A program made the translations under genes and the position numbers. A stretch of 64,000 bases of DNA, from NCBI GenBank assembly GCA_963743885.1, contig CAVURJ010000001.1, positions 76,949-140,948 of the forward strand. Direction: 5' to 3'. Shown in pieces: positions 20,091 through 58,146 of the stretch (position 1 is its first letter; each line of letters begins with the position of its first letter). The notes below the pieces were generated by a model. It ran no database searches. It saw nothing but the letters and a program-made list of their open reading frames with translations, and was not told the DNA's origin. The DNA is from Candidatus Moraniibacteriota bacterium (GTDB lineage Bacteria; Patescibacteriota; Minisyncoccia; Moranbacterales; UBA1568).

Positions 20091-20249
20091 GGTTTCTGGC
20101 AAGATGTCTTTTTGAGAAAAAGAAACTGTCTGAGACGCTCTTGTTTCTCGAAAGATTTCCTTAGGCCGTGACGAGGGAGGGAAATGTTTCGCAAGAAACA
20201 AGAGCGACGAGTTTTTCTTTTTTGAGAAAAGAGTTTCTTGCCGGAAACC
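20091..20249 (+). repeat. Roughly 160-bp imperfect-palindromic intergenic repeat, copy A
   Basis: ggtttctggcaagatgtctttttgagaaaaagaaactgtctgagacgctcttgtttctcgaaag ... gtttcgcaagaaacaagagcgacgagtttttcttttttgagaaaagagtttcttgccggaaacc. The termini are inverted repeats. Other copies sit at 27430, 46336 and 57990 (the last reverse-complemented). Confidence 0.8.
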
Positions 20250-20263
20250 GTTCTCGGCTATGA

Positions 20264-22717
20264 CTAAAGGATCGTGAACGCTGCGACGCTATCACCAGCC
20301 TGCGGCTTCATCACGCGCACCCCCTGCGTCACGCGACCGAGAAGCGAGATGCTCTTAAACGGGATGCGGATGATCGTGCCCTTCTCGGAGGTGAGGATGA
20401 GATCGTCTTCGATATTCTCCATACTCGTGATGAGCGCACCGACGATATCACCGGTCTTATCGGTCACCTTCATCGCCTTGATGCCGGAGCCGCCGCGCTT
20501 CTGCGCCTTGAACTGACTGAGTTCACTGCGCTTGCCATAACCATGTCGCGAGAGCACGAGAAGCTCCATATCCTTGTCACCATCAGAGACGACATCCATC
20601 GCGACGATGCGATCCTTGTCATCCTTGAGCTTCATACCGCGCACACCGGCAGCGCTGCGACCCATCGGGCGAACATCGGATTCCTTGAAGCGGATGGACT
20701 GACCATCAGCGGTCGTCATCACGACTTCGTCCTGTCCGGTCGTCGGGCGAACCCAACCGAGCACGTCACCCTTCTCGAGTGAGATAGCGATGAGACCACT
20801 TCGGCGCACGTTCTCGAACTCTTCGATCTTGCTCTTCTTGACCGTACCCTTGGCCGTCGCCATGAAGAGATACTTGCAGCCGCCGTCCTTGAACGAGATG
20901 ACTGCCGTGATCTTCTCCTCCTGTGTCAGCTGGAGGAAATTGACGATCGCCTGGCCCTTCGCAGTGCGCGAAGACTCTGGGATCTCATATGCCTTAGTCT
21001 GGAAGACTTTGCCAGAATCAGTGAAGAACATGAGGTTGTCATGTGTCTCGATGGTGAGCACCTTGGCGATCTTGTCTTCTTCCTTGGTGGTCGCGCCGAT
21101 GACGCCCTTGCCGCCGCGCTTCTGCACGCGATAGACACCTGGGTTCATGCGCTTGATGTAACCGTCCTCGGTGAGCGTGATAATCGCTTCCTCGTTCGGA
21201 ATGAGATCCTCTTGCTTGAACTCGGAGATGCCGGTCTTCACGATGCGCGTGCGGCGATCATCGCCGAAACGGTCACGCACTTCGATGAGCTCGCTCTTCA
21301 CGAGCGCAAGGATCTTCTTGCGATGCTTGAGGAGGTCTTCGAGATACGCAATGAGCTTCAATTTTTCTTCGAGCTCGTCCTCAATCTTCTTGCGCTCGAG
21401 GCCAGCCAGTGTCTGGAGACGCATCTCGAGAATAGCGGTCGCCTGACGATCGGAGAGCTTGAACTTCTTCATGAGGTTCGCGTGGGCCTCTTCCTTGGTC
21501 GGAGACTTTTTGATGGTCTCGATGATCTGATCGATATGGTCGAGCGCGATCTTGAGACCTTCAAGGATATGCGCGCGGTCCTTGGCCTTCTGCAGGTCAT
21601 GCTCCGTACGACGCACGACGACAATCTCACGATGCTTGATATAGTGCTCGAGAATACTCTTGAGTGTGAGGATCTGTGGATCGGTGCCGTCGACGAGCGC
21701 GAGCATGTTGACGTTAAAGTTCTTCTGCAGGTCCGTCATCTGATAGAGCTGATTGAGCACCTTCTGCGGGAAGGCTTCCTTCTTGAGATCGACGACGATG
21801 CGCACGCCATCCTTGTCGGACTCATCGCGCAGGTCCTTGATGCCCACGATCTTCTCTTCCTTCACGAGCTCGGCGATCTTCATGATAAGCGACGCCTTGT
21901 TGGTCGCGTACGTCATCTCGGAAACGATGATCTGGAACATACCAGCCTTGGTCTCGACGATCTCCGCCTTGGCGCGCGTGACGATCGGGCCCTTGCCGGT
22001 CGCATAGGCCTCGCGGATATCCTTCTGGTTGTACATGATACCACCGGTCGGGAAGTCCGGACCTTTGACGAACTCCATCAGGTCATCGACGCTCGCTTCC
22101 GGATGATCGACGAGATGGCAAATACCATCCACGAGCTCATTGAGATTGTGCGGCGGAATATTGGTCGCCATACCGACCGCGATGCCCACGGTACCGTTCA
22201 AGAGGAGCTGTGGCAGCTTGGCTGGCAACACGACCGGTTCTTCATGTACGCCGTCGAAGTTCGGGATGAAATCCACGGTATCCTTCTCGATATCAATAAG
22301 CATCTCCTCAGCGATCGCCATGAGTTTAGCTTCGGTATAGCGATACGCTGCAGCGCTGTCACCGTCCATCGAGCCGAAGTTACCCTGGCCCCAGACGAGC
22401 GGATAGCGGAGCGAGAAGTCCTGCGCCATGCGGACCATGGTGTCATACACAGCCGAATCGCCGTGCGGATGGTACTTGCCGAGCACTTCGCCGACAACCG
22501 TCGCCGACTTGCGGAACTTCGACGTTGAGCGGAGCCCGGTCGACCACATGGAATACAGGATGCGACGATGCACCGGCTTCAAACCGTCGCGAACATCCGG
22601 CAGCGCGCGCGCCACGATGACCGACATCGCATAATCGAGATAGGATTGCTTCACTTCTTCCGCGATGCTCCGCGGCTCGATCTTCCCTTCATGGAATGCG
22701 CGCTTCTCTTCTGTCAT
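20264..22717 (-). CDS. gyrA: DNA gyrase subunit A
   Basis: 817 aa with active-site [11 protein letters not shown] and a C-terminal beta-pinwheel. Confidence 0.95.
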
Positions 22718-22739
22718 AGATTCGTCGTATATATCGAAA

Positions 22740-23102
22740 TTATCTCGGCTGCACGGCAGGAATGCCTTCCTGCAGACTCGTATCGCCTCTCGTTCTCATC
22801 TGGTCTCGGAAGAACTCTTCACCGGTCGTCTTCTCGCTACTGTCTACGCGGAGCGGCGACGCCTCCTTCAACATATCGCTCAAGGATGGGGCCGGAGTAG
22901 CGTTCGGAGCGAGCTCTCTCCCCTTCTCGATAGCCTGCGGCACATCGCGCGAAATCGAATGAAAATTCTCGCGAACCGACAACATCCAGATACCGATGAC
23001 AAAAAGCATCGAGACAGCGAGACAAGCAAGTGCGTAGCGCATGCGTACCGGCTCAGGCTGCCGCCGTACCTCTTCTATCTTCTCCCAGATATTAAGTGTC
23101 AT
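22740..23102 (-). CDS. Hypothetical small membrane protein
   Basis: Internal start [11 protein letters not shown] at 23102 and one TM helix ([19 protein letters not shown]). The ORF-track start at 23189 overlaps the MBL-fold gene. Confidence 0.3.
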
Positions 23103-23142
23103 AAGAAAAACTGAACGGCTAGGGTAGAAATTTAAACGACTG

Positions 23143-23802: not shown

Positions 23803-23977
23803 AGCGGGAGATAACCAAAGAGAGATAACACAGCCATTCTAACAGGAATGCGATGCCTTGTCGAGCATCATCAGACATCCATAAAACTGCTAGAGAGAGC
23901 CTGGGGATTGACTTTTTCCGATTCTCTGATACACTGGAAAAACATCACGTTTCTAATCCGGATCATATCATTTTCGT

Positions 23978-24118
23978 ATGCCAAAGAGGACATACCAGCC
24001 GAAGACCCGCAAGCGCGCCAGGCGCCATGGGTTTCTCGAGCGCATGAGCACCGTTGGCGGCCGCAAGGTCGTCGCTCGCCGCCGCGCCGCCGGTCGGAAG
24101 AAGCTGACCGTTGCCTAA
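23978..24118 (+). CDS. rpmH: 50S ribosomal protein L34
   Basis: 46 aa, manually translated: [46 protein letters not shown]. Below the ORF-track size cut-off. Confidence 0.85.
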
Positions 24119-24134
24119 GGAAAACGGCTGCATT

Positions 24135-24473: not shown

Positions 24474-24685
24474 GTAACCGTTCAAATTCTCACCGCCTAT
24501 TAAATAAGAAAAGAAATCATGCTTGTCTGATAAAATGTCCGGATTTCGGCTGAAAACCTTTCAAAGCTCGTCTGGTTATCTCGATAGCCTTCCTCGCTTC
24601 TTCAAAGTTTTCATCTCGAAATCCGAACATTTTCTCAAGACATGAGATTTTGAACGGTTACTAACAAACGAGAAAAACGCTTCTT

Positions 24686-25414: not shown

Positions 25415-25419
25415 CGCCT

Positions 25420-25908: not shown

Positions 25909-25938
25909 TCATCATCCGGCCGCACCAATCTCCTCTCT

Positions 25939-27402
25939 ATGGCCGTCGCCAGAAAAATTGCCTATATCGTCATCCTGAACTCCTTCCTCAAGGTGTTTTC
26001 GACGGTCGCGCTCTCACTCCTCTCCATCCGGCTCATCACCGGCTATCTCGGCCAGGACGGATTCGGTGACTACGCTACCGTGCTCGCATTCTTCTCATTT
26101 TTTTCTGCTATTGCCGACCTCGGCATCGGCGCTGTCACTGCTCGCGAAATATCCCGAGAAGGCGCCGACGAAGGCAAGATCCTCGGTCACGTCATCTCGC
26201 TCCGCATCCTCTCTGCCGCTGCCCTCATTCTCCTCTCACCAGCTGTCATCTTCTTCTTCGATTATTCGCGAGAAGTCGAGATCGGTATCCTGATCGCCGC
26301 CATCGCCACCGTCTTCTCGACCCTCTCGCTCACGCTCAACGGCATCTTCCAAAAGCACCTCGCCATGGACAAGGTGGCAATGGTCGAATTCCTCGGCAAG
26401 CTCCTCCAGGTCGGCGCAGTCTTCCTCATCGTGAAAGCTGACCTAGGATTCCTCGCGATCGCCGCAACGCTCCTTGTCTCACTCTCCTGGAATGCGCTCG
26501 TCGTACTCCTCATCAGCCGGCGCTACACCACTTTCCGCCTCCGTATCGACACAGCTGCTTGGAAGGATTTCCTCCGCGAGTCCTGGCCGATGGGCATGAC
26601 CGCGATCATCACTTTCGCCTACTTCAAGATGGACACCATCCTCCTCTCGGTGCTCCAGACCAGCTCGGAAGTCGGCATCTACAACGTGGCCTACAAGATC
26701 ATGGAAAACCTGATCTTCTTCCCAGCCATGCTCGCCGGCCTCGTCTTGCCGCTCCTCTCACGTTCCATCTTCACTGATCGCCCGCACTTCGACGAAGTCG
26801 CCAACAAGACCTTCAAGGTCTTCCTCATCATTGTGCTACCACTCATCATCGGTACCTGGTTCCTTGCGAGCGATATCATCGCTATCGTCTCCGGAGCCGG
26901 CTTCCTCGAGGCCGCCCCGGTGCTCCGCATGCTCGTCTTCGCGCTCGGCTTCATCTTCTTCGGGCATTTCTTCAACATGCTGCTCATCGTCAGCAATGCC
27001 CAAAAGAAACTCATGCAGACACTCATCATCGCCGCCGTCTTCAATATCCTCGCCAATCTCTACCTCATCCGGGAATATTCATACCTCGGTGCCGCGACCG
27101 CATCGATCGCGACGGAAACACTCGTCGTACTCCTCACCGGCTTCCTTGCCTACCGTCACATCCGCTTCATCCCCTCCTTCGAAAATATCGGCCGCATCGC
27201 GCTCTCCGCGCTCGCCATGACCGCCACACTCTTCTTCCTCGAGCCGTTCTCATTCCTTCTCTCTGGTATCGCCGGTGTCGCTGTCTATATCCTCGTGCTC
27301 TGGCTGACAGACGCCGTCAATCACACCGAGCTCGCCAGCCTCTTCCAGAAAGGCGGCTCATCAACAGAAGAAGCCGAGCACATGGAAACCATGCTGCCGT
27401 AG
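25939..27402 (+). CDS. Polysaccharide biosynthesis protein / oligosaccharide flippase (Wzx, MOP superfamily)
   Basis: 487 aa, roughly 12-14 TM segments with the typical Wzx N-terminal LKVFSTVALSLLSIRLITGYLGQDGFGDYA. Confidence 0.7.
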   Translation: MAVARKIAYIVILNSFLKVFSTVALSLLSIRLITGYLGQDGFGDYATVLAFFSFFSAIADLGIGAVTAREISREGADEGKILGHVISLRILSAAALILLSPAVIFFFDYSREVEIGILIAAIATVFSTLSLTLNGIFQKHLAMDKVAMVEFLGKLLQVGAVFLIVKADLGFLAIAATLLVSLSWNALVVLLISRRYTTFRLRIDTAAWKDFLRESWPMGMTAIITFAYFKMDTILLSVLQTSSEVGIYNVAYKIMENLIFFPAMLAGLVLPLLSRSIFTDRPHFDEVANKTFKVFLIIVLPLIIGTWFLASDIIAIVSGAGFLEAAPVLRMLVFALGFIFFGHFFNMLLIVSNAQKKLMQTLIIAAVFNILANLYLIREYSYLGAATASIATETLVVLLTGFLAYRHIRFIPSFENIGRIALSALAMTATLFFLEPFSFLLSGIAGVAVYILVLWLTDAVNHTELASLFQKGGSSTEEAEHMETMLP

Positions 27403-27429
27403 GATCGTTTTCGTCATCGAAAACACCCT

Positions 27430-27613
27430 TCTTAGTTTCCGGCTAGATGTCTTTTTGAGAAAAAGAAACTGTCCGAGACACCCTTGTTTCCCGAAGGATT
27501 CCCTTGGGTCGTAAAGAATGAGGCCTGCCTGCCGGTAGGCAGGGGAATGCTTCGTTAGAAACAAGGGTGATGAGTTTTTCTTTTTTTCAAAAAGAGTTTC
27601 TGGCCGGAAACCG
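27430..27613 (+). repeat. Palindromic intergenic repeat, copy B (with a central insertion carrying the CCTGCCTGCCGGTAGGCAGG hairpin)
   Basis: agtttccggctagatgtctttttgagaaaaagaaactgtccgagacacccttgtttcccgaagg ... cgttagaaacaagggtgatgagtttttctttttttcaaaaagagtttctggccggaaacc. Confidence 0.8.
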
Positions 27614-27645
27614 ATACTCCTCAAAACCGACTGACAGCCATCACT

Positions 27646-28530
27646 ATGCCAAAAGTCGCTATCATCGTCCTCAACTGGAACGGGCATGACTGCCTCCCTG
27701 GCTGCTTGTCATCTCTCGATTCCCTTTCTTACCCAGACAAAGAGATCATCGTCATCGATAACGGATCAAGCGACGATTCTCTCGCGCTCGCCAAGCGCGA
27801 CTTCCCACACTGCCTCTTCATCGAGAACAGCGAGAACCTCGGCTTCGCTTCCGGCATGAATCGCGGTATCCGCGTCGCCCTCGATCGCGGCGCTGACTAT
27901 GTCTGGCTCTTCAACTACGACGCGCAAGCAGCAGCCGATTCCCTCTCGCTCCTCATCGACACAGCCTCATCGCATCCGGAGGCTGGGCTCTTCAGTCCGG
28001 TCATCACCGATCAAAACGAGAAAGTCTGGTTCGCCAAAGGACAGATCGATTTCCTCCGCATGCGCGCCACCCATGTGGAGCCGTCGCCCCGAGAACTCAC
28101 GGCCGATGCCTATCCAAGCCCGTTCCTCACCGGCTGCGCGCTCCTCATAAGGAGAGGCGCCTTAGAAAGCATCGGCTTCTTCGATGAGGATTTCTTCCTC
28201 TATTATGAGGATGCCGACCTCTGCCTGCGCGCCAAAGCCTCTGGCTTCCACTCCCTTGTTGTTCCGAAAGCACGGGTCATACATGCCGAAAAGAGCCGGG
28301 AAAACCCAGAAAAGACCTACTATCTGGTCCTTTCAGGCCTCATGTTCTCAGCCAAGCACGCGCCGCGGCTCATCCGGCCATATCTCGCCATATATGCTAC
28401 AATACGGAGACTGAAAAACCGCTTGGATCTGCTTCGTGGGAGGGATGAGGCAGAAGCCGTCGCGAAAGCCTATAGAGACTTCGACCGCTATGAACACCCC
28501 TCTCTTCTCGATCGTCATCGTCAATTATAA
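27646..28530 (+). CDS. Glycosyltransferase family 2
   Basis: VAIIVLNWNGHDC...IIVIDNGSSDDS...NLGFASGMNRGI; DxD-containing GT-A fold. Confidence 0.75.
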   Translation: MPKVAIIVLNWNGHDCLPGCLSSLDSLSYPDKEIIVIDNGSSDDSLALAKRDFPHCLFIENSENLGFASGMNRGIRVALDRGADYVWLFNYDAQAAADSLSLLIDTASSHPEAGLFSPVITDQNEKVWFAKGQIDFLRMRATHVEPSPRELTADAYPSPFLTGCALLIRRGALESIGFFDEDFFLYYEDADLCLRAKASGFHSLVVPKARVIHAEKSRENPEKTYYLVLSGLMFSAKHAPRLIRPYLAIYATIRRLKNRLDLLRGRDEAEAVAKAYRDFDRYEHPSLLDRHRQL

Positions 28531-41395: not shown

Positions 41396-41750
41396 CAAGT
41401 GAATGAAGTGAACGCCGTGGCCAGAGTAAGCCAACTGCTTGGCTTACGAGGGAGGCGAGAAAGCCGGAGCGATATCCACGCGAGTGGACCGCGAGGCGGG
41501 GTCGACAGCTCGCATAAGCGAGACTGGTGACCGAGTCCTCTCCTAGGCACAAAATGAACAAAGTGAATGGATTGTGCCCCGGAAGCAGGCCAACTCTTGC
41601 CTACCGGCAGGCAGGGCTTGGCCTGCGGAGGACGAGAAAGCCGCAGTGCTGCGTGAGTTTCCGCCGAAGGCGGAAGGCGAGCGCCACGAGGCGGGGTCGC
41701 GAGAAATTTCCGTCAGGAAATTTACTTGTGACCGAGTCTCTCGTTTCTAC
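41396..41750 (+). repeat. Two tandem roughly 165-190-bp related units, each ending in a copy of the tRNA-Leu(GAG) 3' end (…cgagtcctctcctaggcaca; …gtgaccgagtctctcg)
   Basis: Unit A 41396..41560 and unit B 41561..41750 share blocks (aagccaactgcttggctt / caggccaa...ttggcctg hairpins; gaggcgagaaagccggagcg / gaggacgagaaagccgcagtg; cgaggcggggtcg). Unit B contains ttgcctaccggcaggcagg. Confidence 0.7.
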
Positions 41751-41842: not shown

Positions 41843-42160
41843 CCGAGGTAGCTCAGTGGTAGAGCAGAGGACTGATTTTCGGTCACTCCTGTAGTAATAC
41901 AGGATGTATGCATCGGGTGAACTCGAGGAAACCTACGTTTCTAGCAATAGGAATATGGCAATCTCGATCCAAGCCTCAGTGGGATAAAGTTCTGAGGAAG
42001 GTGTAGAGACTAGCAGGTGAGCCCCAACAATAATCCTGCAACAGCGCCCGACTTCGCACTCCTTTCGAGGAACGAAGATGAAATAGTCCGATCCTTGGGG
42101 AAACCCAAGACAAATAAGAGGAAAATCCTTGTGTCGGCAGTTCAATCCTGCCCCTCGGCA
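41843..42160 (+). tRNA. tRNA-Phe (anticodon GAA) interrupted by a 246-nt group I intron in the anticodon loop
   Basis: 5' exon 41843..41874 (GCCGAGG acceptor, D-arm, GAGGA-CT) and 3' exon 42121..42160 (GAAAATCCTT...GGCAGTTCAATCCTGCC CCTCGGC A). The acceptor stem is perfectly complementary across 300 nt. The spliced loop reads CTGAAAA. Confidence 0.7.
41875..42120 (+). mobile_element. Group I intron in tRNA-Phe
   Basis: Internal guide GGTC pairs with exon GACU with a U.G at the splice site. P7-forming R/S-like elements are gtagagactagcagg and agatgaaatagtccgatcc. The intron ends in G (omega-G) at 42120. Confidence 0.6.
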
Positions 42161-42228
42161 CAGAAGACAGTTAGCAGTTAACAAATAGCAGACAACGGGA
42201 CTGTAGCTCAGTGGTAGAGCGCGCGGCT

Positions 42229-42848
42229 CAAGAAGTTCATTTCAAATTGTGTTGCGGGTTGTGTAATTCAGCATGACAATTGTTGCAAACAAGCAGACAC
42301 TTGTTCACTTCTTCGTCAATATGGGATTGCTTCCGATTTGAAAGGGATCTCATATCGAGTTGAAAGCTTTTTTCTTTCGGATCAAGGTGATGGAAAGTCA
42401 GTGCGGCAAGGTTTTTGTTATAGCCGCAAACTGAACATTTCCCACCGAATCGTTTCAAAAGCGACATCTTTCTCTCCAAGCCCCTGGCTTGTTGGGATTG
42501 ATACGATTGATGAAGCTGATTCTTACAAAAGGGCGAGCAAAAGACTGTTTGTCTGCCAGACAATTCCTTGCTACACACGACACAAGTTATGAGTTTTTTC
42601 ATAACTTTATGATAACACAAAATGAATGGATCTAGCAGGGCTGCTTAGGAAGTAATTCCTAAGTGATACTCTGTCAAACTCGGGGAAATCTAAACGGTGA
42701 GCAGTTTCATCCGCATGACAATCCCGAGCCAAGCCTCATCCATCAGGTGAGGAAGGTGTAGAGACTAGACGGCAGACACCCGTAATTCGGGTGAAGGGAT
42801 AGTCCAGCTCACAAATTTGAAAGAAGTTGCGAAAGCAATAGTGAGAAG
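42229..42848 (+). mobile_element. Group I intron in tRNA(CAT) carrying an antisense HNH endonuclease ORF
   Basis: The 3' part (ccaagcctcatccatcaggtgaggaaggtgtagagactagacgg ... gggatagtccagctcac) is homologous to the tRNA-Phe intron core. The intron ends with G at 42848. The ORF 42237..42620 lies on the opposite strand. Confidence 0.6.
42237..42620 (-). CDS. HNH homing endonuclease (intron-encoded, antisense to host tRNA)
   Basis: 127 aa; CSVCGYNKNLAALTFHHLDPKEKSF ... LLVCNNCHAELHN is a classic HNH/zinc-finger motif. Low GC. Confidence 0.7.
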   Translation of the reverse strand: MCYHKVMKKLITCVVCSKELSGRQTVFCSPFCKNQLHQSYQSQQARGLERKMSLLKRFGGKCSVCGYNKNLAALTFHHLDPKEKSFQLDMRSLSNRKQSHIDEEVNKCLLVCNNCHAELHNPQHNLK

Positions 42849-42947
42849 CATAACCGCTTGGTCGTTGGTCCGATTCCAACCAGTCCCACAAAAACCCCTC
42901 CCCCATTGACCTGGGCGGGTTTTTTTGCCAAAATGTCCTAGTGAGCT

Positions 42948-44806: not shown

Positions 44807-45514
44807 ATGGGAATAAAATACAAAGTAAACGAGGACTTCTTCAAAAAATGGTCCCAGGAAATGGCTTATACGCTCGGATATATCTACGCCGACGGCAGCC
44901 TCGAGTACGCCCCTCGCCTCCGAGGAAGATACCTCCGCGTCTCTAGTGTGGAAAAAAGAAATATCGAGAAGATAAAAGAATGGATGGATTCAGAACATAC
45001 AATAATCACCAAGAAGCCAACGTCAAAGAACGGAAAGACTGGGTACTTGCTACGAATCGGGAGTCATAAGATCTATAACGATCTAACGAAACTGGGATTG
45101 TATCCAAATAAATCATTGACCGTGAAATTTCCCTCTATTCCTAAAGAATCTCTCTGCCACTTCGTTCGCGGATATTTCGATGGTGATGGCTGCGTCAGAC
45201 TATCGACAGCAAAGGGAGTCTTTCAGAAGCTCAGCACTGTATTTACAAGCGGAAGCAAAGCATTTTTACAAGATCTGGCTATCCAATTACACTCTGCCGC
45301 CAACACAAAACAGCTGAGTGTCTACAATGGCCATCGGTCTTATATGCTTTCCTATTCGACAAGTGATAGTATTAGGCTTTTTAAGTTTTTTTATGGAAAA
45401 GCGAAGATTCCTATCTTTTTGGAAAGAAAGGCCGCAATTTACGGCGAGTATTTCCAGCTGAAGCCAGAAAGGCTTGATAAAAAGGCAAAAAGTGTACTAC
45501 AATGCTTAAGTTAA
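44807..45514 (+). CDS. Free-standing LAGLIDADG homing endonuclease (two-motif, monomeric type)
   Basis: 235 aa; motif 1 MAYTLGYIYADGSLEY and motif 2 FVRGYFDGDGCVRLS about 110 aa apart. Low-GC, between a terminator and tRNA-Cys. Confidence 0.75.
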   Translation: MGIKYKVNEDFFKKWSQEMAYTLGYIYADGSLEYAPRLRGRYLRVSSVEKRNIEKIKEWMDSEHTIITKKPTSKNGKTGYLLRIGSHKIYNDLTKLGLYPNKSLTVKFPSIPKESLCHFVRGYFDGDGCVRLSTAKGVFQKLSTVFTSGSKAFLQDLAIQLHSAANTKQLSVYNGHRSYMLSYSTSDSIRLFKFFYGKAKIPIFLERKAAIYGEYFQLKPERLDKKAKSVLQCLS

Positions 45515-45722: not shown

Positions 45723-46348
45723 TTTTCGTTTTTCTTCTTGATCTTCGCGATCACTCCAGGGATCTTCTTAAAATCCTCGATGAGCGTCTGACGCAATCCG
45801 CCATTGTAGAGTGCGGCCGCCGGATGGTAGAGCACGAAAAACATCTGCTCGCCGATATCATCAAATGTCCGACGGAATACCTGTCCGTGTACTTCGGAAA
45901 TCTTCTCGCCCGGGACGAAGTGCTCCATCGCATGCCGGCCGAGTGTCACGATGACTTTCGGACGGATGACAGCGATTTGCTCATGGAGCCAGGGCATGCA
46001 CGCCGCTATCTCTTCCGGCAGCGGATCACGATTCTCCGGCGGACGATACTTCACGACATTGGTTATATAGATATCCTCGCGCTTAAGGTTGATCGTCACC
46101 AACATCTCAGAAAGAAATTTTCCTGCTGCTCCGATGAACGGCCTCCCCTCTTCGTCTTCTTTTTTTCCTGGCGCCTCACCGACGAACATGATCTCTGCTT
46201 CCGCGCTGCCATCACCCGGCACCGCCTGCGTGCACTGCTCGCGAAGCGCACACACGCACTCGCGCACCCACTTCTCATTCACAGCATCAAGCGCCTGTTG
46301 CTTATCCATATCAGACACATTATGAATCGAGCTCAGGATTTCCGGCAA
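45713..46348 (-). CDS. udg: Uracil-DNA glycosylase, family 4
   Basis: FVGEAPGKKEDEEGRPFIGAAGKFL and HPAAALYNG motifs. The ORF-track start overlaps repeat copy C; the true start may be the internal MDKQQ. Confidence 0.8.
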   Translation of the reverse strand: MPEILSSIHNVSDMDKQQALDAVNEKWVRECVCALREQCTQAVPGDGSAEAEIMFVGEAPGKKEDEEGRPFIGAAGKFLSEMLVTINLKREDIYITNVVKYRPPENRDPLPEEIAACMPWLHEQIAVIRPKVIVTLGRHAMEHFVPGEKISEVHGQVFRRTFDDIGEQMFFVLYHPAAALYNGGLRQTLIEDFKKIPGVIAKIKKKNENRA

Positions 46349-46497
46349 GATGTCTTTTTAAGAAAAAGAAATTGTCTGAGACGCTCTTGTTTCTCGAAAG
46401 ATTTCCTTTGGCCGTAGAGAGGGAGGGAAATGTTTCGTAAGAAACAAGAGCGGTGAGTTTTTCTTTTTCTTCAAAAAGAGTTTCTTGCTGGGAATCC
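46336..46497 (+). repeat. Palindromic intergenic repeat, copy C
   Basis: ggatttccggcaagatgtctttttaagaaaaagaaattgtctgagacgctcttgtttctcgaaag ... gtttcgtaagaaacaagagcggtgagtttttctttttcttcaaaaagagtttcttgctgggaatcc. Confidence 0.8.
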
Positions 46498-46517
46498 AAA
46501 CGTCACCCATCCAAATT

Positions 46518-48072: not shown

Positions 48073-48294
48073 ACACTCACTACGCCCCTTCGATAAACTC
48101 GGGGTGCGTTCTATAGGGCTTCCCTGCCCGAAGTGCTACATCGTTGCAGGCGGGCGCCCTCTAGTCCTCTCCGCCCAGCTGGCGGATCGGTCACCCCGAA
48201 CGGGAAACTCCCGTTTCCTCGACTCGATTCGAGTCGAAGCGGGCCGACCCCTGCCTACCGGCAGGCAGGCCTTCCCTATTCGACCCCGTCAGTG

Positions 48295-49139: not shown

Positions 49140-50350
49140 TGTTCCACGTGGAACAATTCCGATACTAGTCACCCTATCAGAACAATCCAGAATATCTTTT
49201 AAACGATACTTTCCTACTTGAAAGTAAAAATCATGCCATTAGGCTAATCTGTAAGCCAAAAATACGCACGGTCCAGCCCGCGTCATCACAATGTTCCACG
49301 TGGAACATATTACACTCCATAATAATTAATCATCTGTTCCACGTGGAACATTCAAAAAAACCAGTAGCGGATAACAATGAGACAACGAGATTGTTCCACG
49401 TGGAACAATTTAAAAAAATACCTCCGTATCTACGTGACAGCAAAAAATTAGCGTATCGATGTTCCACGTGAAACATACTCATATATACAGACTTGTTCCA
49501 CGTGGAACAAAATACCCACTATGAACAATCATGGGTCTTGAGGATCCTTAAAAGATAAGCGATTGCTATGGAGCCACAGAAAGCATATTCTAAAACATCC
49601 TATGTTCCACGTGGAACATACATCAAAAAAACAGCCAGCCTGAAATATCCCTTATCCTCGTTTTCAAATATACTTTCCTTTCAAAAAGTCTAAAAATACT
49701 GTTTTTTGGCTTATGATAGGTACGTAAGACACAAAAATACTAGTTGTTCCACGTGGAACATGCCAAAATTCCATACCAATGTTCCACGTGGAACATTTTT
49801 AAAAAAACGATATCCTTGAGGCGTCTCACAATGTTCCACGTGGAACATATGTGTTTTTTGAAAAACAGTCTCAAAACGATCCATCCCATACAAAGGTTCG
49901 CCAGAACAGCTGCGCCTCTACTTATCGCGATACATTGTTCCACGTGGAACAATGTATCATTACAATACATGGATAAGGGAAAGATGTTCCACGTGGAACA
50001 TATCTACCGAATACCCACTCCATGAACATTAAAAATTATCCTTTTGCCAGAACTTTCTTCTTTGAAAGTTAGAAATTTGTATATTTTGGCTTATATTAAA
50101 TATTTATGTTAATAATGTTCCACGTGGAACATGCTAACACAATCAAATCTTATCGTGCTTGAAACATATTTTAAAAAATGTTCCACGTGGAACATTTAAA
50201 CAAGTCACCAAAAGATCGGGTATTTCGCCAGGGGATTATGTTCCACGTGGAACATAGCCATCATTATTAAAAACTCAAATATACAAATATCCTATATATC
50301 ATACTAATAATTGACAGAATGGACTGCTGTAAAATGTTCCACGTGGAACA
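49140..50350. repeat. parS: Array of 16 parS-type 16-bp palindromes TGTTCCACGTGGAACA (one copy TGTTCCACGTGAAACA) with irregular 34-152 bp spacing in AT-rich noncoding DNA
   Basis: Core starts: 49140, 49292, 49335, 49392, 49460 (gtgAaaca variant), 49494, 49603, 49745, 49780, 49832, 49935 (a 26-bp perfect palindrome tacattgttccacgtggaacaatgta), 49985, 50116, 50179, 50239, 50335. Most are flanked to give the 18-bp ATGTTCCACGTGGAACAT or TTGTTCCACGTGGAACAA. The sequence is one or two symmetric changes from the canonical Firmicute/ParB parS TGTTNCACGTGAAACA. Confidence 0.85.
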
Positions 50351-50413: not shown

Positions 50414-50419
50414 GTCTAC

Positions 50420-50815
50420 TATATACATGCTACCAAGATGATTTTCATTATTAACAAACGCTGGCCATCTGCGAGTTCTACGCGAGCTTAACAAAAGACA
50501 CTGAGCCCCAACACAAGCCTTGGATCTAATCCCTCTCCGCCTCTGGCAGAGAGTATTGACCAGATTTTACCTACGCTCCTCCGCCAGCTGGCGGACGGAA
50601 ACGAGAGTAAAATCTTGTTTCGCTCGCTTTGCTCGATAATTAAAAGACGGTGCTGGGCAGGTGCTTATCGAAAGGGGCTCGTGTCTTTCTACTACATCCG
50701 ATCAGCAGCGAGCTCCCTACGTCTCGACTTCGCAGCCCTCGTTATTGTGGCACGCCTAGCCAATGTATTCGATATCATCCTCTTGGGCCTAATACACAAG
50801 GCTCGGTTTTTTTAA
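50420..50815 (+). ncRNA. Candidate roughly 400-nt structured noncoding transcript (identity unknown) between the consensus promoter and a T7 run
   Basis: Higher GC than the AT-rich surroundings and multiple internal helices (cagattttac...gtaaaatcttg; ccgccagctggcgg). It ends ggctcggttttttt at 50808..50815. Only weak ORFs (66 and 72 aa) lie within it. The downstream gene has its own TTGATA-17-TATACT promoter at 50877..50905. Confidence 0.35.
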
Positions 50816-50933: not shown

Positions 50934-51926
50934 ATGAGCCGTAATGTTTCTTCTAGTACTGTCGGATCCGATGCGCGAGTGTCCCTTTTTGTATTTTCCA
51001 GCCTGCTTGTTTTTAGTGCAGTTTTTTTTATTTTTTCCGGAAGCGCTTCCGGGACATCAAATATTTTCCAAGATACCGACCAGGACGGCTTGAGCAACGA
51101 TGAAGAGAAGCTCTATGGGACCGACCCGAACAATCGGGACAGCGATAATGATGGGTATGGGGATGGAGTAGAAGTAGAAAGCGGATACGACCCTCTCAAG
51201 AAAGCCCCTGGAGATAAAATTACCCAAGAAGAATCGACCACTGCTACCATCTCACCAGCTGCTACCAATGATACTGCTACGTTGACTGACCGGGTGTCGA
51301 GCGAAATTGCTGCGGCGTTAAAGTCATCGGAAAGCGCCGAAGAACCGCTCACTATGGAACAGCTTAGCTCGTCTGTTCAGGAAATTCTCAGTGAAAACAC
51401 TCAGGAAATTACGTTGCCGGATATCGATGCCAGTACCATAAAAATCAAGAAGGTTTCAAAAAAACTTTCCGAAAAAAAACGCGAGGAGCAAGAGCGTGAA
51501 GATATCCTCGAGTATCTCACCGTGATGTCATATCTCGTTGCGAATAATTCACCAAAAGCATTCCACGAGGAAAGCGAGCTTGAGGATCTCGCTTCATCAA
51601 TATCAAGCGAATCGCTGACCGCACTGACCACTGGCAACCTATCCTACATCAATCAGCTCGCTGAAAAAGGAGAGAAGATTCTCAACGAAACGCGTGACAT
51701 CGAAGTGCCTGAAACAATGCTTGATACGCACGTCAAAGCTCTTAGGATTGCAACTTATGCCGTCAACCTCAAAGACTCGTCAGCATCGGTGCAAAACGAT
51801 CCTCTCGGGCAAATAGCGCTACTCTCAAAAACACAAGGACTGATCGGTGCCGCTTCATCACTTGGAGAAGAAATCCAGGGAAGGCTCTCAGGATACGGAA
51901 TCAAGAATATCCCAATCAGCCTCTGA
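50934..51926 (+). CDS. Membrane-anchored/secreted acidic protein with thrombospondin type-3-like Ca-binding repeats
   Basis: 330 aa; N-terminal TM (LFVFSSLLVFSAVFFIF), then DTDQDGLSNDEEKLYGTDPNNRDSDNDGYGDGVE (D-x-D-x-D-G repeats), then an acidic helical region. Confidence 0.45.
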   Translation: MSRNVSSSTVGSDARVSLFVFSSLLVFSAVFFIFSGSASGTSNIFQDTDQDGLSNDEEKLYGTDPNNRDSDNDGYGDGVEVESGYDPLKKAPGDKITQEESTTATISPAATNDTATLTDRVSSEIAAALKSSESAEEPLTMEQLSSSVQEILSENTQEITLPDIDASTIKIKKVSKKLSEKKREEQEREDILEYLTVMSYLVANNSPKAFHEESELEDLASSISSESLTALTTGNLSYINQLAEKGEKILNETRDIEVPETMLDTHVKALRIATYAVNLKDSSASVQNDPLGQIALLSKTQGLIGAASSLGEEIQGRLSGYGIKNIPISL

Positions 51927-51931
51927 ATACT

Positions 51932-53212
51932 ATGCGGCTATCGCAAAAAAACAATCTTTTCATGCGAATACCCCGAGCGGTTCTGTTTTCTAGCTGCCTT
52001 GTCATCATAATCGGCTTCGCTCCAAATGCTTCTGCTGGCGTTTGGGGAGAAACATTCTCAGCTACCATATGGAAGCAGGTGATGGAAGTCGCCTACACGC
52101 AAATACAGGGCATGATGCTAGGAGCCCTCAAATCAGCAGCCATGCAAGCTCTTAATCAGCAAGTAAACCAATTGATTGGCGGTTCATCTTCCAGCAAAGC
52201 TTTATTTATCACGAACTACGAGACCTTCCTCTACCAGGACCCGCTCCAAAAAACCAACCTCTACATGAACGATTTCTTTACGCTCACAACACGCGGGAAG
52301 GGAGCTTCATCAAACTACATCAGCTCAGGAACTGGGGCGTTTAGCAATTATGCCGGACATATTGTCGATATCGGGAAAAAATCAACTATCAATCAGACTG
52401 TGCCAACATATGATCTCGACAATTACTGCGATATTCCGGGAGAAATCACGTCCTTCCAATGCTTCTCGGGTATGTTTAAAAATCCGATGAATAATGATTT
52501 CGGATCTTCGCTGATATTTCAATCTGCATACCAAAGCCAATCCATAAAAAACCAGCGTATAGCCGAAGTCGAAGCGCAATCATCAGGGTTCCTCGGCTCA
52601 AAAAAGGGGAATCAAGTCGTCGCGCCAGCAGGGACTATCGAGGCTATGGCTGGAAAGGTACAGAATATAGGGAGCGACCTCATCGCATCCGCTACGAACC
52701 CCGGGGAACTCGTCTCGAGCGCCGTCGCCGCCATGGCATCGCAAATGATCAATCGACTCGTACAGCAAGGCATCGGACAAGCGCAAGCCAACATGCAACG
52801 GGAGATTTCTAACGTTTCAAGCGAAATAAACACATCCAGAAGTGACGCTATGCGCAATAGCGGTCCGGGAGCGGTCTTTTCTCCGGTCATGGCCCAACGG
52901 ACATCGGTGCGTATCAATCCGAACACTCCTGCACCGCCAGTTGCTTCATCGACCATATCGCCTTGTTCCGGATTCGGCGGCTCTTCCGGAAGTTGTGCTC
53001 CGGCAGCAACGTGTACAAACGGATACAGCGAGTCTGGTTGTGGCAGCGGTCTCGTCTGCTGCTACAATCCGCCAGCGGGAACTGGCCTCGCTGTCGGCTT
53101 GCCATGTTCCTCATACGGGAAAGCTTCAACGTGCCAAAAATCATCTTCATGCAGCCATGGATATACGATTGGTGGTTGTGAAGATGGACTTGTCTGCTGC
53201 TACAACCCGTGA
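51932..53212 (+). CDS. Secreted protein with a duplicated C-terminal Cys-rich module
   Basis: 426 aa with a signal peptide. The C-terminus has two copies of C-x5-C-x2-GY-x3-GC-x2-GLVCCYNP (CAPAATCTNGYSESGCGSGLVCCYNP / CQKSSSCSHGYTIGGCEDGLVCCYNP). This resembles the N-terminal Cys module of the 33052..34269 protein. Confidence 0.45.
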   Translation: MRLSQKNNLFMRIPRAVLFSSCLVIIIGFAPNASAGVWGETFSATIWKQVMEVAYTQIQGMMLGALKSAAMQALNQQVNQLIGGSSSSKALFITNYETFLYQDPLQKTNLYMNDFFTLTTRGKGASSNYISSGTGAFSNYAGHIVDIGKKSTINQTVPTYDLDNYCDIPGEITSFQCFSGMFKNPMNNDFGSSLIFQSAYQSQSIKNQRIAEVEAQSSGFLGSKKGNQVVAPAGTIEAMAGKVQNIGSDLIASATNPGELVSSAVAAMASQMINRLVQQGIGQAQANMQREISNVSSEINTSRSDAMRNSGPGAVFSPVMAQRTSVRINPNTPAPPVASSTISPCSGFGGSSGSCAPAATCTNGYSESGCGSGLVCCYNPPAGTGLAVGLPCSSYGKASTCQKSSSCSHGYTIGGCEDGLVCCYNP

Positions 53213-53346
53213 TTCTTTCTCAAAGGACACCCATAACGGGTATTGGACCCGATTTTACCTGCGCTCTCTTCGAGTCTGAGCCTCAGAGTCGATGACCGCT
53301 CGGAAACGAGAGCAAGCTCTCGTTTCACTCCCTACACTTGGTAATC

Positions 53347-53385
53347 AAAAGCGCCCCGAGCTTGTCGAAGGGCGCTTTTGTATAT
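53347..53385 (+). terminator. Intrinsic terminator
   Basis: aaaagcgccccgagcttgtcgaagggcgctttt plus a T-run. Confidence 0.6.
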
Positions 53386-53496
53386 ATGGTGGGTGATACT
53401 GGATTCCCTGGCTGCTCGCCTCGATGAGGCATCGGGCGAAGCGGTCCGACAGGCAGGGAACCAGTGACTTCATCCCTCACTTGAATACCTTACGGG

Positions 53497-53570: not shown

Positions 53571-53673
53571 GAAAAATAAAGGTATTCAAGTGAGGGATCA
53601 ATGTGACGCTCTACTAACCCCAGCCCAAGGCTGGTCCGCCTCGGGCGGAAACTGAGCTCATCACTCCGAAAAC

Positions 53674-54540: not shown

Positions 54541-54555
54541 AGTCCCGATATATGA

Positions 54556-56400
54556 TCAGACAGCAGCAGGGGTCTTGCCGACAATCCGATCGAATTCATC
54601 CTTCTCAAGCGTCTCCTTCTCAAGGAGCGTCTGAGCAATTGTATCGAGCAAAGCACGCTTCTCAACAAGGATATCCATCGCGCGCTTGAGAGCACCGTCG
54701 ACAAGATGCGATACCTCGGCATCGATATCCTGTGCGGTCTTCTCGGAATAATCCCGTTCCTCGTGCATCTCACGACCGAGAAAGACGAGCTCTTCCTTCT
54801 TGCCGAAGGTACGGGCGCCGAGACGGCTCATGCCATACCGAGTCACCATGCCGCGCGCCATCTGCGTCGCGCGTTCGAGATCATTCGACGGGCCGGTTGT
54901 CGTGTCGTTGAAGATAAGCTTCTCGCTCGCATACCCACCGAGAAGTACCGCCAACTCATCGAGGAAATATTCTCTCGAATGAAGCATCTTGTCCTCTTCT
55001 GGGACCGCCAGCGTATACCCGCCTGCATGGCCGCGGGAGATGATGGAAACTTTCTGGATCGGGTCAGCATTCACGAGGCTCGTGCCGACGAGCGCGTGGC
55101 CGCCCTCATGATACGCGATGATCTCCTTTTCTTTCTTGTTGATAGCGCGGCTGCGGCGTTCCGGACCGAGGATAACCTTCTCGATAGACTCAGTCAGCTC
55201 ATCCATACCAATCGTCTTGTGTTCACGACGGGTCGCGAGAATCGCACCTTCGTTCACGAGGTTGGCAAGGTCGGCACCAGAGAATCCTGGCGTGCGTTCA
55301 GCCAGGCGGCGGAGTTTCACATCTTCTGCAAGCGGCTTTCCCTTCACATGGATCGCGAGAATCTGCTCTCGTTCATTGATATCGGGCAAGTCCATCGTGA
55401 CGCGCCGATCGAAGCGTCCTGGGCGGAGCAGCGCTGGGTCAAGAACATCAGGGCGGTTGGTCGCTGCGATGACGATGACGCTCGTGTCCGTCTCAAAACC
55501 ATCCATCTCGACTAGGATCTGGTTGAGCGTCTGCTCACGTTCATCGTGCCCGCCACCGAGACCGGCACCGCGATGGCGGCCGACAGCATCGATCTCATCG
55601 ATGAAGACGATGGCCGGAGCACTCTTCTTCGCCTGCTTGAAAAGATCGCGCACGCGGCTCGCGCCAACACCGACGAACATCTCCACGAACTCGCTGCCGC
55701 TGATATTGAAGAAGGGGACACCGGCTTCGCCAGCGACCGCCTTGGCCATGAGCGTCTTGCCGGTGCCGGGAGGGCCGAGGAGCAACACCCCCTTCGGGAT
55801 CTTCGCTCCCATATTGAGGAACTTCTTCGGATGCTTGAGGAACTCAACAATCTCCTCGAGCTCGGTCTTCGCTTCTTGCGCGCCGGCCACATCCTTGAAC
55901 ATAATCCGCTTCTTCTTGTCTTTCGGGTCAAGCATGCGAGCCCGGCTCATACCGAATGACATCGCCTGCGCGTTGCCACGCTGCGCCTGGCGCATCATGA
56001 ACCAGATGAACGCCGCAATCAGGATGAAGGGGAGGAGAAACGGTAAAATGGCTGCCGCCCAAAACGACGCGCCGGATTCTTCCTTGATATCGATGCTCAC
56101 GCCCTTGAGCTTTTCCTTATCAACGCCATAATTGCCGAGCGTCTCGGTAAGCGAGCTCTCAGACTCCTTGTTTGCCTTCTGCTGTTTACCTTCCTCCACG
56201 AGCGCCACTTCGAGCGCATTACCGGAAACAGCTATCGATTTCACTTTACCCTGGTTGATCTCTTCTACGAGCTCAGAAAGCGAGACTTCGGCCGGCTTCT
56301 CCTCCGGAGACTGGTAGAGCACGAATATGCCCGAGATGAGGAGGAATATCAGAATGAACGTCGAGAGATTCTTGAGCATCTTTTCCATATGTTTCTGCAA
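54556..56400 (-). CDS. ftsH: ATP-dependent zinc metalloprotease FtsH
   Basis: 614 aa; two N-terminal TM segments, AAA+ Walker A GPPGTGKT, second region of homology, zinc motif HEGGHAL. Confidence 0.95.
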
Positions 56401-56409
56401 AAATATCGA

Positions 56410-57390
56410 TTAGTGGGCTGAATTGAGCAGTGTTACTGTATCACCTTTCCGCTCCAGTTTCAACCCTCGCACTGTGACGGATTGCGTTTTCTTCTTTTCG
56501 CTCCGCAGAGCCTTCAGCCATTCATCCATAACGCCTTTTTCCGGCATCTTCCCATCAGAAAACACCGCAAAAAGAGCCCGGAGCTCACGCAAGAGCAACG
56601 CCGGTGGCAAAGCAAGCGCTTCCGACCTTGAAAACGCCACTTTTCCAGCCTTCCAGGCAAGCGTAAGCGCCCCCTGTGAAGTCTTATTGGCCAGCTCATA
56701 ATCAGAAGCAATGACCGCGGCAGAACGCGCCAGAACCTTACGGATATTCGGCTGGAAATCACGCTCGAGAAGTGGGATAAGCTCATGGCGGATCCTATTG
56801 CGCATGAACCGACGGTCTCCATTGCTTTCATCCTCGCGATAGGGGAGACCGCGTTCTTCGAGGTACTGGAGGATATCCTGCCGGCTCATGGATAAAAGCG
56901 GGCGGATGATAGCTCCACTTTGTGAGCGCATCGCGGCAAGCCCCTGGAGCCCGGCTCCGCGGAGCAGCCGGAGAAGCACTGTTTCTGCTTGATCGTCCTC
57001 ATGATGGGCGACCGCCACTCGTCCGTACCCGAGTTTCTTGCGCAACCGCTCAAAAAACGCATATCGTTCATCACGAAGCGTCTCTTCAAGGTTCCCTTTC
57101 ACAGTCTTTTTCGGGCGGAAGACCGTACAGGGGATATCATAAGCCGCCGCTCGCTCGCGGACCAGCACTTCATCCAAGTCTGACGCCGCACCACGCAGCC
57201 GATAATTCACATGTGCGATATGAAGTTGGAACGCCTGCTTTTCAGCCAGCGCAGCCAGTACATCGAGGAGACAGAGACTGTCTGGGCCACCGGAAACGCC
57301 GATAATGAGGCCTTCTCCTGGTTTCCACAAGGCCTGCGTATGGGCCGCATTCTGGACACGTCGTAAAAAAGCCCGCGCAAACGGCGAAAA
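56410..57390 (-). CDS. tilS: tRNA(Ile)-lysidine synthetase (start uncertain)
   Basis: PP-loop LIIGVSGGPDSLCLLDVL; classic tilS-ftsH adjacency. The ORF-track start at 57588 would overlap gmk by 190 nt, and no clean ATG lies near the expected start, so an alternative start codon is likely. Confidence 0.7.
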   Translation of the reverse strand, partial: FSPFARAFLRRVQNAAHTQALWKPGEGLIIGVSGGPDSLCLLDVLAALAEKQAFQLHIAHVNYRLRGAASDLDEVLVRERAAAYDIPCTVFRPKKTVKGNLEETLRDERYAFFERLRKKLGYGRVAVAHHEDDQAETVLLRLLRGAGLQGLAAMRSQSGAIIRPLLSMSRQDILQYLEERGLPYREDESNGDRRFMRNRIRHELIPLLERDFQPNIRKVLARSAAVIASDYELANKTSQGALTLAWKAGKVAFSRSEALALPPALLLRELRALFAVFSDGKMPEKGVMDEWLKALRSEKKKTQSVTVRGLKLERKGDTVTLLNSAH

Positions 57391-57397
57391 TACCCGC

Positions 57398-57958
57398 TTA
57401 GATCGCGGCGTGCTGCTTGATAATCGAGGCGACTTTCTCGATCGCTTCGTCAAGCTTTCCTTGCTCATTTTCGACGGTGTAGTCATAGATATCAGTATGT
57501 TTGAGCCATTCTTCCGTATATGCCATCCGCTCACGCATGAATGCTTCAGATGGGTTGTCTCGCCGGCGGATACGCTCTTCAAGGACATCGAGCGGGGCAG
57601 ATATCATGATGGCTATGATGCCTGGGTAGAGCTTCTTCGCTGTTTCAACGCCTTTATACTCTATTTTCCAGATACCTATCTTCCCGGATTGCTCCAAACG
57701 GTCCAGTTCCTGTCTCGTTATACCGTACAGGTTACCATTGTATTGCTCGGCATGCTCCACGAACTCGCCCTGAGCAAGCCTCTGCTCGAATACTTCTTTC
57801 GACACGAAGTAGTACGGATTCCCGTCACTTTCGCCAGGGCGCATCGCCCTCGTCGTAGTCGTAACAGCTCTTTCCACTGGGAAAAGCTCAGAAATACCGT
57901 TTATTATCGAATCCTCTCCTGCTCCGGAAGGTCCGGAAATAATGAATACGTTTTGCAT
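57398..57958 (-). CDS. gmk: Guanylate kinase
   Basis: Start MQNVFIISGPSGAGEDSI (P-loop) at 57958. The ORF-track N-terminal extension runs into repeat copy D. Confidence 0.85.
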   Translation of the reverse strand: MQNVFIISGPSGAGEDSIINGISELFPVERAVTTTTRAMRPGESDGNPYYFVSKEVFEQRLAQGEFVEHAEQYNGNLYGITRQELDRLEQSGKIGIWKIEYKGVETAKKLYPGIIAIMISAPLDVLEERIRRRDNPSEAFMRERMAYTEEWLKHTDIYDYTVENEQGKLDEAIEKVASIIKQHAAI

Positions 57959-57989
57959 ACTACTGCTTAGTTTTTGACTAAAAGTTACG

Positions 57990-58146
57990 TTTCCGGAAAG
58001 AAACTCTTTTTGAAGAAAAAGAAAAACTCGTCGCCCTTGTTTCCAACGAAGTATTTCCCTCATTCTTCACAGCCCAAGGAAATCCTTCGAGAAACAAGGG
58101 CGTCTCAGACAGTTTCTTTTTCTTAAAAAGACATCTTTCCAGAAAC
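57990..58146 (-). repeat. Palindromic intergenic repeat, copy D (reverse orientation)
   Basis: The reverse complement reads ...gtttctggaaagatgtctttttaagaaaaagaaactgtctgagacgcccttgtttctcgaagg ... cgttggaaacaagggcgacgagtttttctttttcttcaaaaagagtttctttccggaaac. Confidence 0.8.

Follow-up and report, generated by a model that had tools for sequence, protein, structure and literature searches.

We analyzed a stretch of 64,000 nucleotides from a Candidatus Moraniibacteriota bacterium (GenBank assembly GCA_963743885.1, contig CAVURJ010000001.1, positions 76,949 to 140,948 of the forward strand), which we call the window and whose own numbering is used throughout. An original prediction, made from the letters of the sequence, had placed four copies of an imperfectly palindromic intergenic element in it, here named A to D (Table 1). 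The names that it gave to the flanking genes are correct, as NCBIfam confirmed the pairs gyrA/ispG, wzx/GT2, nrnA/udg, and rpsA/gmk, while its description of the pairs as convergent or divergent is not: all four are co-directional, in the order gyrA, copy A, ispG (minus strand), wzx, copy B, GT2 (plus strand), nrnA, copy C, udg (minus strand), and rpsA, copy D, gmk (minus strand). Particularly, copy A lies 14 nt past the stop codon of gyrA (20264), between this stop and the gyrA terminator, upstream of ispG, and a hairpin resembling an intrinsic terminator directly abuts it. Copy B is found in the wzx-GT2 spacer, whereas copy C starts 20 nt after the stop codon of nrnA and ends about 27 nt before the start codon of udg. 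Copy D is located 18 nt beyond the terminator hairpin of rpsA and 30 nt upstream of the ATG of gmk (57958). Copies B and C fill short spacers that have no terminator, inside apparent operons.

Table 1. Coordinates of the repeat copies and of the features associated with them in the window.
Feature	Coordinates	Strand	Remarks
Copy A	20091-20249	+	159 nt; profile HMM, covariance model
Copy B	27434-27612	+	179 nt; profile HMM, covariance model
Copy C	46337-46497	+	161 nt; profile HMM, covariance model
Copy D	57988-58147	- (inverted)	about 159 nt; profile HMM, covariance model
Spurious open reading frame	27361-27687	-	translation of repeat and flanks
Spurious open reading frame	19982-20194	-	translation of repeat and flanks
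Spurious open reading frame	46320-46499	-	translation of repeat and flanks
Spurious open reading frame	57974-58126	+	translation of repeat and flanks
Intrinsic-terminator-like hairpin, gyrA 3' end	20064-20089	-	directly abuts copy A
Terminator-like hairpin after rpsA	58166-58189	-	by eye; counterpart of the spacer terminators in relatives L001 and L002
Nested palindrome CCTGCCTGCCGGTAGGCAGG	27524-27543		precise 20-nt insertion in the apical loop of copy B
Free-standing 20-nt CCTGCCTACCGGCAGGCAGG palindrome	41596-41615		1 mismatch
Free-standing 20-nt CCTGCCTACCGGCAGGCAGG palindrome	48250-48269		exact; next to tRNA-Ala

A family of four dispersed repeats

A profile hidden Markov model (HMM) of the four copies, searched against the window, recovered exactly these four, with E-values of 2e-50 to 2e-53, and thereby upheld the number and, in essence, the positions originally predicted. 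The element being a palindrome, the same model also matched the opposite strand of every copy (E ~1e-12 to 1e-15). A covariance model, run over the whole window with the filters off, again reported only the four copies, at 171-181 bits, and no fifth. Moreover, the most conserved core, the 23-mer AGATGTCTTTTTNAGAAAAAGAAA, has 4 matches in the window vs. 0.00 expected. The pairwise identity among the copies is 84-89%, that is, they differ by 11-16%, so the predicted value of more than 85% is slightly too high for some pairs. In the alignment of the four copies, the similarity breaks off sharply at the element ends GGTTTCYGG...CCGGAAACC, beyond which the flanks are unrelated; the termini read GGTTTCYGGCAAGATG...CTTGCCGGAAACC, and the left one can also be given as GGTTTCCGGCAAGATG. 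Sharp ends together with unrelated flanks exclude a segmental duplication. The four copies, all inside 38 kb, occupy unrelated intergenic sites in both orientations, and the view that they are dispersed imperfect palindromes rather than pieces of a duplicated segment is therefore borne out. They have a GC content of 0.39-0.46, occur as single isolated units without clusters, and make up about 1% of the window. The repeat is non-coding, as each reading frame is either broken in at least one copy or yields only low-complexity pseudo-peptides. The open reading frames (ORFs) that cover the copies are, as had been proposed, spurious translations of the repeat, and they would mislead automatic annotation. 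Copy B and its identical 243-nt spacer also appear in a Logan assembly, made independently, of run ERR12035942, so the repeat is not an artefact of one assembly.

The hairpin carries compensatory changes and a wobble bias to one strand

Each copy folds into one long imperfect hairpin, in agreement with the long imperfect stem of the original prediction, and the consensus of the alignment has 61 pairs. Copy A folds at -76.5 kcal/mol (z = -9.6; -59.5 kcal/mol and z = -7.4 for the reverse strand) and copy B at -94.7 kcal/mol (z = -11.2). The proportion of paired cells in the alignment is 98.8%, and eight pairs are altered on both sides, in 10 cells, in such a way that pairing is kept. None of 500 column shuffles reached the observed covariation, and when the 3' partners were slid by 1-3 columns, pairing fell to 50-67% and 0-1 compensated pairs remained. 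Variable columns are rarer among the paired (25/122, 20%) than among the unpaired ones (15/37, 40%; Fisher p = 0.018). All four copies are fully (100%) paired along the 13 pairs of the terminal helix, the whole element is an inverted repeat, and its most variable part is the apical loop. A split into subfamilies is suggested by two of the compensated pairs, which separate copies A and C from copies B and D; each of the other six is changed in a single copy. Two or three of them are double transversions, for example from C-G to A-U at columns 10/171, and the change from G-C to C-G at the outermost pair is another of these apparently compensatory events. Since double transversions have no wobble intermediate, they offer a hint, from four sequences, that arm-to-arm templated correction rather than stepwise mutation and selection may have acted here. 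Template switching at quasi-palindromes is a known mechanism for such a correction.

The wobble pairs within the stem are distributed unevenly between the strands. Each copy has four G.U wobbles and at most one A.C, always on the same element strand, which adds up to 16 G.U vs. 1 A.C, or to about 9-10 vs. 1 when counted as events. Consistently, the minimum free energy of the top strand is better by 9-21 kcal/mol in every copy, and this strand scores 171-181 bits with the covariance model vs. 71-75 bits for the bottom strand. With respect to the flanking transcription, copies B and D have the top strand as sense and copies A and C have it as antisense, and all four copies lie on one replichore with the orientations +, +, +, -. 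As the bias tracks the element and not the host, neither host transcription nor fork direction explains it. It points to a single-strand step, of DNA or RNA, in the biology of the element, and the simplest reading of the sequences would be a step intrinsic to the element itself, either a DNA intermediate or a transcript of its own.

Each arm also holds the local palindrome TCTTTTT-NNN-AAAAAGA. By eye, the top strand presents an inner stem, a small internal loop, and then the tract G-U5-C-U5-6, with a matching A-rich tract in the 5' arm; a similar U-rich run on the bottom strand lies farther from the stem, and the full hairpin has no U-tail. A simple consensus terminator scan did not call the element, and partial termination may take place at the internal U-tract. 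Simple scans in and beside the copies found no conserved sigma-70-type promoter and no -35/-10 boxes, with the reservation that promoters in the Candidate Phyla Radiation (CPR) are poorly known, and a motif scan of the copies found neither an IHF site nor GATC.

Distribution among relatives

A comparison of GyrA sequences places the host in Candidatus Moranbacteria/Moraniibacteriota (CPR, Patescibacteria). The closest relatives, as judged by GyrA, have 80% identity among genomes and 92% among metagenomes (L081, WSSedL1CaDRAFT_10000040). L081 is syntenic with positions 11-33 kb of the window (22 kb), yet it is without the element at both sites covered: the distance from the wzx stop to the GT2 start is 11 nt, vs. 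243 nt here, and its gyrA-ispG spacer contains a terminator and a small reverse ORF. Two further relatives, L001 and L002, keep the adjacency of rpsA and gmk, with spacers of 79 and 58 nt that hold only a terminator each. Without copy D, the rpsA-gmk spacer of the window would measure 82 nt, and it keeps, just beyond the element, the ACTTTTAG motif shared with these relatives. Thus, three of the four sites are empty at the orthologous position in relatives.

We also used a set of 160 gyrA-centred loci from CPR and other relatives (2.3 Mb), in which a pattern of the termini alone was not found and in which two matches of the models, at E ~0.05, were generic hairpins. A pattern of the 3' arm had zero matches in viral contigs. 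Rfam at the gathering threshold has no family for the element and reported only tRNAs and two group I introns in the window; when copies A and D were scanned by E-value, the matches were to generic hairpins only, at 14-22 bits vs. thresholds of 55-245. To catch spurious ORFs annotated on other copies, we searched proteins with the repeat's pseudo-translation, for which the most open frame was taken, stops were replaced by Q, and copy B was stitched across a frameshift; none of the 533 word candidates scored, so no protein resembling this translation came to light. Outside the elements, CCGGAAAC is weakly enriched in the window (6 matches vs. 2.3 expected). Extrapolating the density in the window to a CPR genome of about 1 Mb would give about 60 copies, against the roughly 100 of the original prediction, which is likewise an extrapolation.

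In the Logan assembly of run ERR12035942, in which look-ups of exact proteins recovered the same genome, two short-read contigs end inside copies A and D, while a third spans copy B intact and starts inside an unrelated single-copy palindrome. We considered these contig ends as evidence on copy number and rejected the idea: a contig that starts in a single-copy palindrome and runs through copy B indicates that the breaks reflect palindromes as such. Long palindromes may thus be a source of fragmentation of metagenome-assembled genomes. The single-copy palindrome, of about 187 nt (24476-24662), fills the rnpA-yidC spacer and is unrelated in sequence to the four-copy family; its core (24515-24650) folds at -42.5 kcal/mol with a z of -5.9. 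Other CPR loci carry intergenic palindromes of their own, of 100-150 nt (for example L005 1758-1879, L109 8735-8879, and L113 3897-4026), and hairpins of such length may recur in the spacers of CPR genomes.

A second repeat nested in copy B

The prediction that copy B has captured a hairpin in its central loop proved accurate, and the captured sequence is a precise insertion of 20 nt (Table 1). The region of copy B that holds it shows 25/25 complementarity to positions 48248-48272, and with the two free-standing copies, it is a second, REP-sized family of small repeats nested in the first. A 38-nt repeat, GAAGCRGGCCRACYCYTGCCTACCGGCAGGCAGGSCTT, found at 41582-41619 and 48236-48273, contains the same GC-rich palindrome of 20 nt. 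Both free copies stand beside tRNA genes, within the hairpin-rich non-coding stretches 41397-41750 and 48180-48293. Small repeats nested in one another have been reported for the pneumococcal BOX, RUP, and SPRITE elements (PMC10969869).

Other features of the window

The apparent replication origin is located at ~61.3 kb, where the GC skew passes from about -0.18 to +0.2 in the dnaA-dnaN spacer (61261-61519). DnaA-box-like motifs TTATCCAC are found upstream of dnaA at ~59737 and ~59793 (region 59700-59810), and a DciA-like ORF follows dnaN (62670-62963). An AT-rich non-coding stretch of 1.3 kb (49140-50350, GC 0.35-0.38) contains 16 copies of the 16-bp palindrome TGTTCCACGTGGAACA, whose half-sites have 31 matches vs. 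1.15 expected. This palindrome is the canonical ParB-binding site parS, and at 49460 it reads exactly TGTTCCACGTGAAACA, the version used in ParB studies (PMC8299390, PMC6393308). The array lies about 11 kb from the origin; a chromosomal parS array of this density is unusual, and no ParB was seen among the ORFs scanned. We also tried to tie the orientation of the repeats to replication by taking this palindrome array at 49-50 kb as oriC, in which case every copy would have had the same orientation relative to the fork, and rejected it, given the origin indicated by the GC skew and the identity of the array as parS.

Group I introns interrupt a pair of tRNA genes (41843-42163 and 42197-42885; Rfam RF00028 at 41865-42110 and 42622-42829). 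By eye, the genes encode a tRNA-Phe(GAA) and one with the anticodon CAU, each interrupted after U33, and ARAGORN calls neither. The second intron, of about 615 nt, overlaps an antisense ORF of 127 aa (42237-42620) without a Pfam match. The sole mobile-element protein among the about 50 ORFs searched is a free-standing LAGLIDADG endonuclease (44807-45514), unrelated to the element. On the minus strand lie five tandem paralogous ORFs of 345-413 aa (2087-7766) that match nothing in Pfam. A stretch of 300 nt is common to two of these at 99% identity (3299-3598 and 4353-4652), and a gene conversion or duplication of recent date is suggested by it. Finally, two similar non-coding stretches of ~90 nt (50560-50650 and 53240-53351), of the form GATTTTACCTRCGCTC ... 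CGGAAACGAGAG-loop-CTCGTTTC ... AATYAAAAG, flank the gene pair at 50934-53212 and may represent a leader, a terminator, or a small RNA that is repeated.

Interpretation and alternatives

On balance, we think it probable that the element is a lineage-specific, non-autonomous, full-length palindromic repeat of the MITE kind (miniature inverted-repeat transposable element), with an architecture like that of ERIC, Correia, and RUP, which would be co-transcribed as a hairpin. It works like a MITE rather than being a proven one. The sharp ends, the occurrence in both orientations, and the absence from the spacers of relatives support the MITE-like reading of the original prediction, which finds no support in a duplication of the target or in a transposase within the window. 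As size, inverted termini, and absence from orthologous sites agree with the class, with a dispersion seen over 38 kb of the window, while a target duplication and, within the window, a cognate transposase were not found, we file the repeat as MITE-like. In the mechanism that we propose, an enzyme supplied in trans, and not encoded in the window, would copy the element into intergenic spacers; its recognition site, probably on a single strand of the DNA, would be the hairpin or the termini GGTTTCYGGCAAGATG...CTTGCCGGAAACC, and it would leave no target-site duplication. The inserted element would then be transcribed along with its neighbors, since the four copies lie between co-directional genes and two of them inside apparent operons. 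The transcript would carry a hairpin of about 61 bp, the type of substrate taken by double-strand-specific RNases, and could alter the stability of the mRNA or partly terminate transcription. These fates of the duplex (processing by RNase, changed mRNA stability, and partial termination) are proposed by analogy with Correia and ERIC elements (PMC10969869). The hairpin itself would be kept intact by selection or by arm-to-arm templated correction.

Several observations weigh against this interpretation. No target-site duplication of at least 3 nt, a check that the original prediction had suggested, was found at any of the four copies, even with the boundaries shifted by up to 4 nt. The suggested cognate transposase (an IS200/IS605 TnpA) did not turn up either, as a Pfam search found no transposase or integrase of any kind, IS200/IS605 included, among the about 50 ORFs of the window. 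The 11-16% divergence between copies gives no sign of recent activity. The core 23-mer has zero exact matches in GTDB genomes (one for each species), JGI metagenomes, and IMG/VR viral contigs; the search of relatives that had also been suggested, with the HMM (nhmmer) and the Infernal covariance model against the 160 related loci, found no homologue, and BLASTN in distant mode gave no match in phage and plasmid records. Lastly, the argument for mobility comes from the absence in relatives and not from a clean pair of filled and empty sites: the relatives have about 80% DNA identity or less, their spacers are not alignable, and there is no base-precise empty site. A comparison of the flanks of the four copies showed no shared target motif on the left or on the right.

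The copies might instead be host cis-regulatory RNA hairpins (a processing site, a stabilizer, an attenuator, or a two-way terminator) that were spread by recombination or derive from a dead mobile element. The covariation and the lower variability of the stem speak for constraint on each copy, every copy sits in a transcribed spacer with co-directional genes on either side, and the top-strand inner stem is followed by the tract G-U5-C-U5-6, matching an A-rich tract in the 5' arm. However, copies A and C offer to the mRNA the weaker strand with its A.C mismatches, which is unexpected if mRNA folding had been selected; the terminator scan does not call the element, termination at B and C, in apparent operons, would silence GT2 and udg, and relatives manage without it at the same sites, as the 11-nt wzx-GT2 spacer of L081 illustrates. 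We thus regard this explanation as unlikely. Multi-copy genes for a small hairpin RNA, independently transcribed and with the top strand as the RNA, would account for an excess of G.U over A.C (16 vs. 1) on the same element strand whatever the direction of the flanking transcription, and for the strong covariation. Against such genes, there is no conserved sigma-70-like promoter inside the copies or at a fixed distance from them (CPR promoters being poorly known), no conserved terminator past the full hairpin, and no match to an Rfam family. Furthermore, it would be unusual for a functional small RNA to consist of a near-perfect duplex of 61 bp and a variable loop, and here the apical loop is the most variable part and tolerates an insertion of 20 nt in copy B, all of which makes RNA genes improbable.

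We are similarly doubtful of an action at the level of DNA, in which the copies would be cruciforms or paired protein-binding sites for nucleoid organization, replication, or recombination. The same short A5/T5 palindrome in both arms could bind a dimeric protein twice per element, and the genome has other arrays of DNA-binding sites, such as the 16 parS in 1.3 kb; yet a double-stranded site would not give a G.U bias on one strand, and would have no need of pairing over 61 bp or of compensatory changes beyond the short motif, and the element is absent from the loci of relatives that were searched. A chance resemblance, a local segmental duplication, or an artefact of the assembly could be suspected, as all copies lie within 38 kb of each other in the window examined, but E-values of ~1e-50, 0.00 expected core matches, unrelated flanks, one inverted copy, and the recovery of copy B in an independent assembly effectively refute this explanation, to which we give next to no credence. 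Finally, the MITE-like reading could be taken further in a way that we consider quite unlikely as it stands: the repeat may represent a strand-specific, hairpin-dependent mobile DNA of CPR bacteria, with a single-stranded intermediate, no target duplication, an enzyme newly linked to such repeats, and a palindrome re-templated from arm to arm, which would explain the double transversions, or, alternatively, a domesticated RNA-processing hairpin that punctuates operons.

Comparison with known systems

Bacterial MITEs are under 500 bp long, have terminal inverted repeats, lie between genes, and give stable transcript structures, and the direct repeats that flank them fade with age (PMC10969869; PMC11602168). 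The element is like them in being small and non-coding, with inverted termini, several intergenic copies dispersed within the window in both orientations, and no transposase of its own, as well as in its very stable predicted transcript structure, its absence at the orthologous sites of relatives, and the nesting of one repeat in another. It differs from them in that it shows no target-site duplication (2-10 bp in MITEs), in that no parent insertion sequence or transposase was found in the window, in that the inverted repeat spans the whole element instead of termini of 4-30 bp, and in that copies diverged by 11-16% still have 98.8% of their positions paired.

ERIC/IRU, the imperfect palindromes of about 127 bp of enterobacteria, share with our element a palindrome over the whole length, a similar size, and a location in transcribed intergenic regions in either orientation; they have no sequence similarity to it, and the CPR host belongs to an unrelated phylum. 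Correia/NEMIS elements carry terminal repeats of 26 bp, a TA duplication, an IHF site, and outward promoters. The repeat is like these elements of Neisseria (100-160 bp) in its size and its pairing inverted repeats, and unlike them in that the TA duplication, the IHF site, and the outward promoters were not found at its copies. The inverted repeats of Correia hairpins pair in RNA and are cleaved by RNase III, and co-transcribed ERIC elements affect the fate of the mRNA (PMC10969869); judged by analogy, the RNase III cleavage of Correia RNA would be the most plausible model for the 61-bp RNA duplex here.

The original prediction had also called the copies REP/BIME-like, which does not fit, as size, composition, and arrangement all differ. 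With the REP/BIME repeats and their RAYT proteins (PMC2817692), the element has in common that it is an extragenic palindrome, that it lacks a target-site duplication, and that recognition of a single-stranded hairpin is presumed. In contrast, REPs are 20-40 nt long, GC-rich, very abundant, and arranged in alternating clusters, whereas the element is 160 nt long, has a GC content of 0.39-0.46, and occurs singly, and the window encodes no RAYT (Y1 transposase). Of the two repeats, the one closer to a REP is the GC-rich CCTGCCTACCGGCAGGCAGG palindrome of 20 nt, which is nested in copy B, and not the element of 160 nt.

Palindromic MITEs derived from IS200/IS605 (PATE-type) make no duplication, fold in a strand-specific manner, and are mobilized by a transposase in trans; they have distinct hairpins at the left and right ends and insert 3' of a fixed target of 4-5 nt. 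The missing target-site duplication is common to both, and the one-strand wobble bias would fit strand-specific folding. Unlike PATE-type elements, however, the repeat has a single hairpin, its flanks share no motif, and its orientation follows neither replication nor transcription, so that, beyond the missing duplication, it shows no signature of IS200/IS605.

The full-text literature searches made here turned up no account of MITE-like repeats from CPR bacteria. The genomes of CPR/Patescibacteria, of about 1 Mb, are streamlined, and mobile DNA is thought to be scarce in them. The share of about 1% of the window, together with a near-perfect 61-bp hairpin kept by compensatory changes, suggests that such genomes can tolerate, and perhaps use, selfish palindromes. 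A specialist would find this kind of element unsurprising next to MITEs, ERIC, and Correia; its interest lies in the CPR host, in the preserved hairpin, and in the wobble bias to one strand.

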